Of a DNA stretch of 36,877 nucleotides, positions 1 to 9,000 are shown one piece after another. Made by a program: the position numbers. The DNA comes from a virus. Taxonomy: Duplodnaviria; Heunggongvirae; Uroviricota; Caudoviricetes. The stretch lies in the IMG/VR virus record IMGVR_UViG_2874927903_000002. One strand, written 5' to 3'. The stretch's first letter is position 1. Each line of letters starts with the position of its first letter.

Positions 1-3000
1 ATGACCGAATTTACAACTCTTCTTCAGCAAGGAAACGCCTGGTTCTTCATCCCCAGCGCCATCTTACTTGGTGCGCTTCATGGTCTGGAACCAGGGCACT
101 CAAAAACGATGATGGCGGCGTTTATCATCGCCATCAAAGGCACCATTAAACAGGCGGTGATGCTCGGACTGGCAGCAACCATTTCGCAGACCGCGGTGGT
201 CTGGTTGATTGCCTTTGGCGGGATGGTGATCAGTAAGCGCTGATATGACTTTCCGTGTCAAACCGGAATCTCTAATTTTGACGATTTTCTTTTTAGGTTT
301 AATTCCCTGAGGGCGACGTAGCAGTAAATCCGACGGTGAATCACGCTGATATTCGCGGGTTGGATACCGCATTACAGAGGTCCGTCATATGAGCCTGCCA
401 CTTTCTTACGTCGCGAATCAGCTTTGTTCCGCCGTCGCCAAGCGCTAACGTGGGTTACTCTTGTACCGGGCTACGTCGCCTTCAGGGAACTGGTTATTCT
501 CATTTTTTATTTGTGACATTGTGGTTGTTGTGCGACAGACATTGCTATTCGGCCCATATCCCAGATAAAACCCGCCAGCTCACGTGCAACAGCAACAATT
601 GTAATATTGACATTCTTTCCTTTGGCCTGAAGTTTTCGATACCTCTTACAAAGCCTGAGTTGAGCATCCCATGCTCTGTCAATGACGGGGCGGGGTAAAT
701 TTTCCTGCCTTTTTTGTATTGCCGGACTGATGCGTGCCGGATGACGGTAACTCCACGCTGCCTCGACCAATAGCTTTCTGGCATAGCTGTTTCCGGCTTT
801 GGTAATGCTGCCCTGATGTCTGCTTCCACCCAATGAATATTCTGATGGCGTGATACCAAACCATGACATCAGTTGTCGTGGATGTTCAAAACGGGTCAGA
901 TCACCCAGTTCAGAAATTAATCCAACCGCAGTAATAAACTGAATCCCTCGCATGGCTTGCAGCGCCTCTACTACCGGATACAGCCTCCATTCGGTAACGG
1001 CCTCCTTCAGGGCGGATTCCAGCCGTTCACATTGTGCCTGCCGGTCTTCTATTGTACGACGGTGTTCGTCAAAAGCTAATTGTCGCCAGGGACTTTCGAA
1101 TGAGTATTTGCTGAGCCAGCGTCGGTGTGCAGGGCCCCAATCTGCTCGCCCGACATAATGGACCCCATGAACCAGAAGAAACGATTTCAGACGTTGCCTT
1201 GCATGCCGTAAATCATCGCGGGCAGATGCCCATGCCCGGGCCAAATCCCGGAATGCCTCATCTTCAATACCGGGTACGTAGACAGCAGAAAGATCTCCTG
1301 CACGCAGTGAACGCACAAGTCTGATGGCATCACGGCGATCGGTTTTAACCCGCTCCCCCGGTTTTTTCGGGATAAGTGAGGGGGCGCAGACCATGCAGTC
1401 AAAACCGGATTTCACCAGCCGACGATAAAGTCCATAACCACAGGGCCCCGCTTCATAAACGATACTGACCTGCGATGACTTTGACCTGAGACGTTTACAA
1501 AGATTCTGAATATCAGTAGGTGATGTGCCAATTTTACCCATCAGTTCAACAGGTTCTGAATTGATAGCATAAGCGACAGTAATCGATTCTTTGTGAACAT
1601 CTAACCCGACGTACAATGTGTTATTGTTGTTCATGCTGGCCTCCGTGGTGGAAATACCGGGGTGTAGCAACAGCTCACCCATGCGGCTCTGACAACGATG
1701 TTAACCCGCGTTAAATATCCCACGTTGGCCAGCATCTGTCTCACGGAAAGTCATACTGCCTTACTTTAATCCGTTTTCTGAGCTTAGATTTTTCTGTTCC
1801 TACCCAGACCGTGGATTTGGAATTCATTTTTTGTCAGGTCAATGCTAATCGTTAAAACGGCCATAACGCACCTCCACTGGAAGGTTTATCAGTAATATCC
1901 TACCGTTGCTTCATGGTCGGGGCGTCCATTCCATTATTATCGGTTTTCCTTTCTGTTTATAAATGAAAACGCCAGCTGTATTCAGGCTGGCGTCAGGAGA
2001 AATGAAGCCTGTTGAGTGAGATTCACCGGTTCTGGTGCAGAAGCTGCAGATGGCGCAGGGTAAGGACATCTTCTCTTGCCTGCTTAATACAGGACAACAG
2101 TGCTGTTTCTGTGGTTAATGGCACTATACCCTGTATCACTGCATTGTCTTACAGCAACTGGTGAGGGCTGGCATAAGTTGCCGGTGTTTCGGTAGAGTCA
2201 CGGTCATCCACCACGCGGAGTGAATAACCGTTTTCAGCGGCCTTATTAATCAGTTCAGTGATATTAACACCATCAATGTCAACGACAATGTGTCCCATAT
2301 CCAGCGCCTGTACGTTAACGCTGTCGGCTTCCAGTGTCATCATTTCGCCTCCGGATACTTACCCAGGGTAATGTTATTTACCGTTCTGTAATTGTCGCGG
2401 GTCATCAGGCCGGTCGCCCTGCGAGCCCGGAGGATATCGATGCTGTTTATTAACTGAGAGCGGGTACAGGCGCTGAATCCCGGCTGGTCGGTACGCACCA
2501 GCGCGTATTTTTCCACGAGAAAGTTCACCGCATCACACAGTGAAATGCCTGCCTCAATATGCTGCTCAATCACACGTTCATCGGCAAAAGGTGTGTCATT
2601 CAGTGTGAGGCCATAGTGCTGGTCCAGCAGTCGGGACAGCAGTATCTGCCAGATTTCAACAGGAGACGGGCGAGAACTGGCCGCCTGCCCGGGTAATACA
2701 GGTAATGTTTTCATACTGAAGATTTTCCTGATATGCAGATATAAAAATGGAAAAGTGGCGTGGTGAAAACACCAGGCCGTAGCAGAAGGCTATTCTGGAG
2801 AGTTAATTTTTCATTTCGGGCGTCGGATAAACAGCCAGATAAACGTAACCACAACTGCTGAGGGTATCGGCTTTGCAGGTCAGCCCTTTTGCATACAGCG
2901 TGACGGTATGCTGATGGCGGGGATTCAGTTCACCGCTGGTGAGCATGAGTTCCAGTTGTTTCATCAGCAGCGGAAAGGCCTGGTCCAGGTGGTACGCATC

Positions 3001-6000: not shown

Positions 6001-9000
6001 ATGGTTATCGTCGGGTATGGGCGCTGCTTCGCAGACAGGCAGAACTTGATGGTATGCCTGCGATCAATGCCAAACGTGTTTACCGGATCATGCGCCAGAA
6101 TGCGCTGTTGCTTGAGCGAAAACCTGCTGTACCGCCATCGAAACGGGCACATACAGGCAGAGTGGCCGTGAAAGAAAGCAATCAGCGATGGTGCTCTGAC
6201 GGGTTCGAGTTCTGCTGTGATAACGGAGAGAGACTGCGTGTCACGTTCGCGCTGGACTGCTGTGATCGTGAGGCACTGCACTGGGCGGTGACTACCGGCG
6301 GCTTCAACAGTGAAACAGTACAGGACGTCATGCTGGGAGCGGTGGAACGCCGCTTCGGCAACGATCTTCCGTCGTCTCCAGTGGAGTGGCTGACGGATAA
6401 TGGTTCATGCTACCGGGCTAATGAAACACGCCAGTTCGCCCGGATGTTGGGACTTGAACCGAAGAACACGGCGGTGCGGAGTCCGGAGAGTAACGGAATA
6501 GCAGAGAGCTTCGTGAAAACGATAAAGCGTGACTACATCAGTATCATGCCCAAACCAGACGGGTTAACGGCAGCAAAGAACCTTGCAGAGGCGTTCGAGC
6601 ATTATAACGAATGGCATCCGCATAGTGCGCTGGGTTATCGCTCGCCACGGGAATATCTGCGGCAGCGGGCTTGTAATGGGTTAAGTGATAACAGATGTCT
6701 GGAAATATAGGGGCAAATCCATGATTGTCTGCGCTGAAATGGACGAACAGTGGGGCTACGTCGGTGCTAAATCACGTCAGCGCTGGCTGTTTTACGCGTA
6801 TGACAGGATACGGAGGACGGTTGTGGGGCACGTCTTCGGTGAACGCACTCTGGCCACACTGGAGCGTCTTCTGAGCCTGCTGTCGGCCTTTGAGGTCGTG
6901 GTATGGATGACGGATGGCTGGCCGCTGTATGAATCACGCCTGAAGGGAAAGCTGCACGTTATCAGCAAGCGTTACACTCAGCGCATTGAGCGACATAATC
7001 TGAATCTGAGACAACATCTGGGTAAGGCAGTATGACTTTCCGTGAGACAGATGCTGGCCAACGTGGGATATTTAACGCGGGTTAACATCGTTGTCAGAGC
7101 CGCATGGGTGAGCTGTTGCTACACCCCGGTATTTCCACCACGGAGGCCAGCATGAACAACAATAACACATTGTACGTCGGGTTAGATGTTCACAAAGAAT
7201 CGATTACTGTCGCTTATGCTATCAATTCAGAACCTGTTGAACTGATGGGTAAAATTGGCACATCACCTACTGATATTCAGAATCTTTGTAAACGTCTCAG
7301 GTCAAAGTCATCGCAGGTCAGTATCGTTTATGAAGCGGGGCCCTGTGGTTATGGACTTTATCGTCGGCTGGTGAAATCCGGTTTTGACTGCATGGTCTGC
7401 GCCCCCTCACTTATCCCGAAAAAACCGGGGGAGCGGGTTAAAACCGATCGCCGTGATGCCATCAGACTTGTGCGTTCACTGCGTGCAGGAGATCTTTCTG
7501 CTGTCTACGTACCCGGTATTGAAGATGAGGCATTCCGGGATTTGGCCCGGGCATGGGCATCTGCCCGCGATGATTTACGGCATGCAAGGCAACGTCTGAA
7601 ATCGTTTCTTCTGGTTCATGGGGTCCATTATGTCGGGCGAGCAGATTGGGGCCCTGCACACCGACGCTGGCTCAGCAAATACTCATTCGAAAGTCCCTGG
7701 CGACAATTAGCTTTTGACGAACACCGTCGTACAATAGAAGACCGGCAGGCACAATGTGAACGGCTGGAATCCGCCCTGAAGGAGGCCGTTACCGAATGGA
7801 GGCTGTATCCGGTAGTAGAGGCGCTGCAAGCCATGCGAGGGATTCAGTTTATTACTGCGGTTGGATTAATTTCTGAACTGGGTGATCTGACCCGTTTTGA
7901 ACATCCACGACAACTGATGTCATGGTTTGGTATCACGCCATCAGAATATTCATCGGGTGGAAGCAGACATCAGGGCAGCATTACCAAAGCCGGAAACAGC
8001 TATGCCAGAAAGCTATTGGTCGAGGCAGCGTGGAGTTACCGTCATCCGGCACGCATCAGTCCGGCAATACAAAAAAGGCAGGAAAATTTACCCCGCCCCG
8101 TCATTGACAGAGCATGGGATGCTCAACTCAGGCTTTGTAAGAGGTATCGAAAACTTCAGGCCAAAGGAAAGAATGTCAATATTACAATTGTTGCTGTTGC
8201 ACGTGAGCTGGCGGGTTTTATCTGGGATATGGGCCGAATAGCAATGTCTGTCGCACAACAACCACAATGTCACAAATAAAAAATGAGAATAACCAGTTCC
8301 CTGAAGGCGACGTAGCCCGGTACAAGAGTAACCCACGTTAGCGCTTGGCGACGGCGGAACAAAGCTGATTCGCGACGTAAGAAAGTGGCAGGCTCATATG
8401 ACGGACCTCTGTAATGCGGTATCCAACCCGCGAATATCAGCGTGATTCACCGTCGGATTTACTGCTACGTCGCCCTCAGGGAATTAAACCTAAAAAGAAA
8501 ATCGTCAAAATTAGAGATTCCGGTTTGACACGGAAAGTCATATCAGCGTCAACGGAGCACCGTATTGACGCTTATTTATTGGTGAGTGCTACGTTCCATG
8601 GCAGGAGTTCGTCAACACGGTTGGAAGGCCATTCCGGCAGTACGCTCAGGATATAGCGCAGATACGCTTCCGGATCGATACCGTTCAGTCGGCAGGTGCC
8701 GATCAGCCCGTACAGTAGCGCACCACGCTCTCCACCGTGATCGCTGCCGAAGAACATAAAGTTTTTCTTTCCGAGACAGACTGCACGAAGCGCTCTTTCC
8801 GCGGCATTATTATCCGCCTCAGCCAGACCATCATCACTGAAGTTGCACAACGCAACCCAGTGCTTCCTGATATACCGGAACGCATCTCTCAGACGGCATT
8901 TTTTCGATAACGTGTGTTCTTTCTCCTGCATCAGCTTATACAGGGAAGTCAGTAGCGGTTTACTCTGCATTTGCCTGACCGCCAGGCGTTCAGACACCGG

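Follow-up and report, generated by a model that had tools for sequence, protein, structure and literature searches.

The window analysed here is a stretch of 36,877 nucleotides (IMG/VR record IMGVR_UViG_2874927903_000002) whose left part holds two inverted copies, A and B, of the insertion sequence (IS) ISSso6, a member of the IS110 family. The copies bracket 5.3 kb that comprise a module of the Escherichia coli prophage CP4-44, an IS2 and a fragment of IS1; outside them lie half of the gene rcnA, next to copy A, and an IS66-family element, next to copy B. All of this had been noticed in an earlier reading of the DNA by itself (the sequence-only reading), which placed the two copies within 1 nt of the boundaries given below and whose description of the segment and of its outer flanks stands. 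Inversions between inverted ISSso6 copies (A with a third copy, R, and A with B), together with target-specific nesting of ISSso6 in the ends of IS66 elements, explain this structure with a probability that we put at about 0.85.

The ISSso6 pair and its neighbours

In the first 12 kb, a repeat search found no inverted pair other than 225-1764 and 7022-8561. When compared base by base, 238-1764 and 7022-8548 share 1527 bp with a sole mismatch (832/7954); 4 bp (GTAA) and 3 bp (GCG) of these are target sequence and not part of the IS. Copies A and B themselves are 1520 bp each, mutually inverted, with one mismatch (99.9% identity), which for an inverted repeat of 1.5 kb is far beyond chance. The features of the locus are the following:

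1-240, plus strand: 5' half of rcnA, codons 1-80 (match to E. coli rcnA over 1-241), severed by copy A
241-1760, minus strand: ISSso6 copy A, 1520 bp, its 3' end abutting rcnA and its 5' end the CP4-44 border; recombinant copy
241-506, minus strand: non-coding region 3' of the transposase gene of copy A, candidate seekRNA region, same sequence as 8280-8545
507-1682, minus strand: transposase open reading frame (ORF) of copy A, 391 aa in its longest and 375 aa in its annotated form, Pfam PF01548 and PF02371
1761-1764, minus strand: TTAC, which in reverse complement is GTAA, the 4-nt tip of an IS66-type end that was stranded at the CP4-44 border when ISSso6 inserted
1765-5390, minus strand: right-end module of prophage CP4-44 with a DUF957 remnant, yeeW, cbtA, cbeA, yeeT, yeeS, an antirestriction gene and a truncated DUF932 gene (from homologous E. 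coli loci and Pfam gene calls)
5391-6721, plus strand: IS2, 1331 bp, with no matching 5-bp duplication (left CTTGC, right TGATT)
6722-7021, plus strand: internal piece of IS1; its last 8 bp, ACATCTGG (7014-7021), are the left-hand copy of the duplication made by the IS66
7022-7025, plus strand: GTAA, the 4 nt that open the IS66 terminal inverted repeat, cut off from the remainder by copy B
7026-8545, plus strand: ISSso6 copy B, 1520 bp, simple insertion into the IS66 end
7104-8279, plus strand: transposase ORF of copy B, which scores 273.7 bits (cut-off 140) against NCBIfam NF033542, 'IS110 family RNA-guided transposase'
8280-8545, plus strand: non-coding region of copy B, candidate seekRNA, 266 nt, then the right subterminal inverted repeat CACGGAAAGTCATA
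8546-11044, minus strand: rest of the IS66-family element (tnpA, tnpB, tnpC), ending in ...GTTTACGCTTAC
11045-11162, plus strand: rest of the same IS1, beginning with the second ACATCTGG (11045-11052) and reaching the IS1 terminal repeat

The transposase ORFs of the two copies differ by one codon, and matching E. coli copies bear the PGAP name 'IS110-like element ISSso6 family transposase'. The element occurs at 195 places in 126 of 5,426 complete E. coli genomes; several of the top ISSso6-bearing strains are presumably enteroinvasive. Its sequence (1520 bp, GGCAG...ATATCA) has subterminal inverted repeats of 14 bp, TATGACTTTCCGTG beginning 5 nt from the left end and CACGGAAAGTCATA stopping 3 nt from the right end. 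The non-coding region at 8280-8545 has a minimum free energy of -88 kcal/mol (z = -4.88), and 0 of 200 shuffled sequences fold equally well. Its DEDD transposase, its subterminal inverted repeats and this structured region downstream of the gene place ISSso6 among the IS1111-type elements of the IS110 family. In such elements, the target is chosen by a seekRNA that the non-coding region behind the transposase gene encodes (PMC11187229). Rfam gave no match for 6900-8700 at E <= 1, no curated bridge-RNA or seekRNA family covering ISSso6. A junction promoter in a circular form of the element was also considered and rejected: there is a TTGACA in the right end, yet the 20-nt spacer that separates it from TATGAC is unconvincing.

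Target site of ISSso6 and the ends of IS66

The exact limits of ISSso6 come from empty sites. In what follows, a caret marks an insertion point, a slash a junction, and L numbers are the loci compared. At the CP4-44 border of E. coli ARL09/232 (L003), the empty site reads ...GGTGCTCCGTTGACGC^TTAC/TTTAATCCG (in a shorter reading, ...GTTGACGC^TTAC/TTTAATCCG). In E. coli VL40 (L001), ISSso6 lies at this caret with the same junction as in the window, and excision of 1520 bp from L001 restores the uninterrupted IS66 end of L003. In the same way, the tkt and speC genes that carry a copy become intact E. coli genes once 1520 bp are excised, with 100% identity over 300 nt and no gap. These three exact comparisons establish that ISSso6 is 1520 bp long and makes no target duplication; they also rule out that GTAA and GCG belong to the element. 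Loci of E. coli, enteroinvasive E. coli and Shigella yielded 28 distinct flank pairs: 26 have GTAA on the left and the other 2 ATAA, and 23 have GCG on the right. The rule for ISSso6 is thus insertion between GTAA and GCG(Y), with a fixed orientation and no duplication of the target.

The terminal repeats of the IS66 family have this same GTAAGCG at their outer tip (GTAAGCGTCAACGG... and GTAAGCGTAAACTG...). Since this tip is conserved, many ISSso6 copies lie nested 4 bp inside IS66 ends, which by our own count make up about 13 of about 21 distinct sites (7022-7025/8546-8552 and 1761-1764 in the window; L002, L035, L042, L049, L050, L054, L018 and L025 elsewhere). In FDAARGOS_943 (L002), both ends of one IS66 carry an ISSso6, and the same is true of L035 and L042, which belong to sister genomes of the window. 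Furthermore, a 77%-identical relative of ISSso6 in Sodalis also adjoins GCGTAC.... Ordinary genes are hit as well, namely tkt, speC, sopA and rcnA. No description of a preference of ISSso6 for IS66 ends was found in the searchable literature, and this homing is only a moderately new point; if ISSso6 does home to IS66 tips, the IS66 end concerned should be disabled.

The choice of target may be guided by RNA from the non-coding region of ISSso6. Stretches of this region that resemble the junctions are ATATCAGCGT, CGTAAG and TTTAC, and the candidate guide segments among them are guesses. A broader proposal can be entertained tentatively, at somewhat worse than even odds: ISSso6 would be an RNA-guided parasite of IS66-family ends that builds composite ISSso6 and IS66 repeats of 4 kb, often as inverted pairs; these would be the preferred crossover points of inversions in Shigella and enteroinvasive E. 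coli, and rcnA would be an off-target hit.

Some other copies deserve mention. In CP026814.1 (L042), the other end of the same IS66, which is uninterrupted in the window (11033-11044), has gained a further ISSso6, which shows that the element was recently active in this lineage. One extra G is found at the right junction in L025 and L042 (ATATCA/GGCGTAAAC). In sister or related genomes (L052, L053, L037), a partial ISSso6 directly follows some of the ISSso6 copies; the one in L052 begins at GCGCTTGG in the non-coding region, where GTTA precedes it. This arrangement looks like self-targeting of a GTAAGCG-like motif inside the non-coding region of ISSso6 itself.

Copy B, copy A and the third copy R

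The left flank of copy B is ...ACATCTGG/GTAA and its right flank, GCGTCAACGGAGCACC..., is the remainder of the same IS66 end, which reads GTAAGCGTCAACGGAGCACC when intact, as in L003. The far IS66 end, ...GTTTACGCTTAC/ACATCTGG, is followed by the IS1 remainder up to the terminal repeat at 11162, so that the 8-bp duplication ACATCTGG stands on both sides of the IS66 and the IS1 continues across. Copy B is a simple insertion 4 bp inside the IS66 terminal inverted repeat, and the IS66 is itself a simple insertion in IS1 with an 8-bp duplication. The order of nesting was IS66 into IS1, then ISSso6 into IS66. Only four IS66 bases lie on the IS1 side, which is why the sequence-only reading saw IS1 on one side of copy B and IS66 on the other and concluded that neither copy was a simple insertion. 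That conclusion fails for copy B, whose flanks form the intact-flank insertion that it had named as the alternative, and holds for copy A, whose junctions are recombinant.

Intact rcnA reads GATCAGTAAGCGC^TTTACTGCTC at the insertion point, and the 3' junction of copy A, IS/GCGCTTACTGATC, is rcnA. Its 5' junction, CGGATTAAA-GTAA/IS, is identical to that of the simple insertion at the CP4-44 border of VL40 (L001); truncated ISSso6 copies occupy the same place in one Shigella flexneri genome and in another E. coli genome. The junction of rcnA with ISSso6 occurs in no complete E. coli genome. A genome scan for the IS 3' end returned three loci only, and an exact-pattern scan for the predicted reciprocal junction (IS 5' end with the rcnA 3' half) found none in species-representative genomes, which do not include this lineage. 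The representative of the RcnA-fragment cluster (P0010) led to contig-end fragments only. The reciprocal junction was located through a 170-aa ORF of the RcnA C-terminus (P0121), which led to L038, in the same genome as the window. The order there is IS66, ISSso6 (minus), rcnA 3' half, rcnB, with the junctions ...GAGCAGTAA/IS/GCGTCAACGGAGCACC... (also written ...GAGCAGTAA/IS/GCGTCAACGG...).

The search of related genomes for the other rcnA half, which the sequence-only reading had proposed, therefore ends at a third ISSso6 copy, R, which carries it (CP026797.1:545606-547125, plus strand). Copy A lies at 329412-330931 on the minus strand of CP026797.1; R is inverted relative to it, the 5' ends of the two are 214.7 kb apart and the rcnA 3' half lies inside this interval. 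In a reconstruction, flipping the interval gives a simple rcnA insertion and an ISSso6 inside the IS66 end at the CP4-44 border. The same split of rcnA, inverted and 141-220 kb apart, exists in CP026762.1, CP026814.1 and CP026866.1, and the reciprocal junction is present in at least 6 genomes. A simple insertion of ISSso6 in rcnA is also found (L012, L013 and L040, including CP026795.1 and PTES01000001.1), in the order rcnA 5' half, IS, rcnA 3' half, rcnB. Relatives thus show each half of copy A as a simple insertion with intact flanks, the rcnA half in these loci and the CP4-44-border half in L001, and only half by half. Taken together, these junctions show that copy A is a recombinant, as the sequence-only reading had supposed, and that its partner was R and not copy B.

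An identical counterpart of the window over 10,243 nt is found in CP026797.1 (L008), where the window starts at position 329172. The RcnA fragments bear the source name Shigella boydii, and the window is a chromosome of the Shigella boydii type; one member of these fragments comes from CP001063.1, which we take to be S. boydii CDC 3083-94. A look-up with the 80-aa truncated RcnA revealed three classes of arrangement among closely related genomes. In the tally of 24 contigs read, where orientation calls rest on public assemblies and not on reads, 12 have the arrangement of the window, 2 (CP026795.1 and PTES01000001.1) the simple insertion in rcnA and 2 (CP026866.1 and CP026872.1) a reversed 5.3-kb segment, while another 4 stop before the structure can be made out. 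Over the 7.2 kb upstream, 0-2 substitutions separate these loci, so that the rearrangements must be recent.

In CP026866.1 (L005) and CP026872.1 (L011), the entire segment of 5265 bp is reversed at 99.8% identity between intact IS copies, of which just the inner flanks are swapped; as private differences, L011 has an IS1 within copy A and L005 lacks 1 nt. The orientation of the window is shared with L006-L010 and is the older one, because the IS1 and the IS66 duplication are contiguous only there. The segment between A and B, described earlier as potentially invertible, can thus indeed invert and has done so in these two sister genomes. No invertase gene is found among the genes at 1765-7021, which are CP4-44 toxin-antitoxin and accessory genes, the IS2 and the IS1 fragment. 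The usual neighbours of the CP4-44 right end are tmaR, yeeA, sbmC and dacD.

Other rearrangements can be suspected in the window. The IS2 joins the truncated DUF932 gene of CP4-44, on its left, to internal IS1 sequence, on its right; it has no matching duplication, and it marks one more junction made by recombination or deletion. The stretch right behind the IS1 end, 11163-14970, carries ruvC, yebC, nudB and aspS, genes that we take to lie far from both rcnA and CP4-44 in E. coli K-12. Given this distance, the IS1/IS2 cluster would be another rearrangement breakpoint. Downstream of aspS, an isochorismatase-family gene is split by an ORF (15724-16920, 398 aa, PF01548 and PF02371, from the L043 gene calls) that encodes a different IS110-family transposase. 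Further IS1 ends lie at 18109 and 35141.

Routes of exchange and comparison with known systems

The junctions of copy A are best explained as follows. The 5' junction would derive from an ISSso6 in an IS66 end at the CP4-44 right border and the 3' junction from an ISSso6 at an imperfect rcnA site; a reciprocal exchange between these inverted copies would have given the hybrid A and its reciprocal product R. As A and B also form inverted repeats of 1.5 kb with 99.9% identity, the 5.3 kb between them can flip too. What can be read directly in the genomes compared is the sequence of the junctions, including the reciprocal one, the empty sites and the segment in its two orientations. Repeats that are intact, with swapped flanks, imply a crossover inside the repeat, and this makes homologous recombination the simplest mechanism. 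The exchange would most likely be RecA-dependent recombination across the 1.5-kb repeats; we infer this host route, as well as the exact order and number of the exchanges.

Several observations weigh against this account, at least in its simplest form. The IS66 on the R side is a full-length variant (GGTGAGTGCTACG; GTGCTACG), located beside yohO in sister genomes, whereas the IS66 remnant at the CP4-44 border of E. coli and S. flexneri is another variant (GGTGAGAACTACG; AACTACG, then tmaR). A single inversion between A and R from an E. coli-like ancestor is rejected for this reason; one has to suppose either another ancestral state or at least two exchanges among ISSso6 copies, by which three 3' flanks were permuted. 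Furthermore, the yohO-side flank of the full-length IS66 (AATCATTA) has no matching duplication at the CP4-44 border, and the predicted third junction, X-GTAA/ISSso6/GCG-IS66 remnant (GAGAACTACG)-tmaR, was not found. Nothing here separates RecA-dependent recombination from an exchange mediated by the transposase. Lastly, the insertion in rcnA was not conservative in the textbook sense. The site reads GTAA-A-GCGC (GTAAAGCGC) in the orientation of the IS, and the occupied site lacks the middle A (window 238-241; the L013 junctions; L004 1731-1750), a shorter form that is absent from all 5,362 E. coli rcnA sequences matched. One nucleotide was thus lost, in contrast with the exact insertions in tkt, speC and the IS66 ends.

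The use of this off-target site could be explained by a stretch of the non-coding region, TTTACTGCT (window 8458-8466; IS positions 1433-1441), which is perfectly complementary to the 9 nt on the left of the insertion point, AGCAGTAAA. The chance expectation of such a match, allowing for the comparisons made, is roughly estimated at 0.03-0.1, and no comparable extension of pairing was seen at the other non-IS66 sites. Perhaps the non-coding region (UUUACUGCU) pairs additionally with the left flank and the two halves of the target are read separately; if so, the base lost at rcnA would be explained. This loss at an imperfect site and the homing to IS66 are the sole points that go beyond routine.

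The sequence-only reading had attributed the non-matching flanks of both copies to an inversion or another exchange between A and B. The two are inverted, 99.9% identical and 5.3 kb apart, and inversion between them does occur in sister genomes. However, in the orientation of the window, copy B already lies in contiguous DNA, with the GTAA/GCG split and the ACATCTGG duplication intact; a flip between A and B joins the rcnA 5' half to IS1 and breaks this contiguity, which is the derived state of L005 and L011. Nor does such a flip rejoin rcnA, whose 3' half is on the third copy 214.7 kb away, so that this origin of the flanks is hardly credible. Recombination between IS copies stands as the explanation for copy A, with R and not B as the partner. 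An enzymatic route can also be imagined, in which the DEDD recombinase of ISSso6 and its guide RNA, acting on IS ends or pseudo-targets, catalysed the A/R and A/B flank exchanges. IS110-family recombinases are capable of programmed inversions between target and donor (PMC11208160), GTAA(A)GCG, at the rcnA junction, is a pseudo-target and the 9-nt stretch is complementary to the left flank there. It is nevertheless improbable, as the products are complete copies of 1520 bp with one flank swapped each, the signature of a crossover within the repeat; recombination of a left end with a right end would give a restored target and an end-to-end junction, neither of which is seen, and the simple rcnA insertion provides a plausible parent.

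Repeats of 1.5 kb could also have misled assembly, so that the L005/L011 orientation or the split of rcnA would be artefacts. The quality of the assemblies is uneven, and several of them (e.g., L010) contain many single-base indels. It remains that at least 12 independently assembled contigs show the window-type junctions with every base the same, that the two assemblies of the inverted type each have differences of their own, that the reciprocal rcnA junction is found in those six or more genomes, and that one read spanning 1.5 kb suffices for each junction; an artefact is very improbable. Two other structures were discarded. A composite transposon does not fit, as its outer ends would be two right ends with unrelated flanks, rcnA and IS66, and two right ends presumably cannot form the left-right pair used by IS1111-type elements (PMC11187229). 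A dedicated invertase switch does not fit either, as there is neither an invertase gene nor short crossover sites.

The recombination between inverted ISSso6 copies is of little consequence: it implies no gene regulation, and rcnA had already lost its function with the insertion. It should be emphasized that the target specificity of IS110/IS1111 elements has to be checked before non-matching flanks are read as a rearrangement, since four target bases can hide beyond the IS. Moreover, assemblies and comparisons between strains become harder when a single IS copy belongs to two nested invertible intervals, here of 5.3 kb and 215 kb.

The finding of an IS-bounded inversion is already known and belongs to the routine scrambling of Shigella genomes. 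In the IS-mediated inversions of Shigella (Seferbekova et al. 2021, PMC8072062) and in the structural variants of S. sonnei (PMC12795559), inverted IS copies likewise bound segments whose orientation varies between strains, from a few kb to hundreds of kb, with intact IS copies and swapped flanks. Nothing essential is different here, except that the element is the low-copy IS110-family ISSso6 whereas the others are abundant IS1, IS3 and IS4 types. Here, too, copy A is common to two invertible intervals nested in one genome, of 5.3 kb and 214.7 kb.

The Hin, Gin and fim switches are also segments bounded by inverted repeats and present in two orientations in a population. They differ in having an invertase gene and short crossover sites, whereas the repeats of the window are whole IS copies of 1.5 kb; no promoter or gene arrangement suggests regulation by the 5.3-kb flip.

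With regard to the target, the closest likeness is to IS4321 and IS5075, IS1111-group elements that Partridge and Hall (2003) are said to have described as inserting into the 38-bp terminal inverted repeats of Tn21-family transposons. These too are IS1111-type elements with subterminal repeats that enter the terminal repeat of another mobile element always at the same position and the same way round, and elements struck at both ends are bracketed by an inverted pair, as in L002, L035 and L042. ISSso6 differs by its host, IS66 (tip GTAAGCG) and not Tn21, by a constant target of only about 7-8 bp, and by the fact that it also hits ordinary genes.

The elements with a seekRNA or a bridge RNA (ISEc11, ISKpn4, ISPa11, ISEc21 and IS621; PMC11187229, PMC11208160) share with ISSso6 the NF033542 DEDD transposase, a long structured non-coding region and site-specific insertion free of duplication. 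The difference is that ISSso6 is known here from its sequence, with no Rfam match and with guessed guide segments, and PMC11187229 contains no mention of ISSso6 and IS66. The same work provides a precedent for an IS that targets another IS, as ISEc21 targets the transposase genes of IS3-family elements (PMC11187229). ISSso6 and IS66 would be a natural case of this kind, convenient for working out the target rules of guide RNAs, including the 1-nt spacer tolerated at rcnA.

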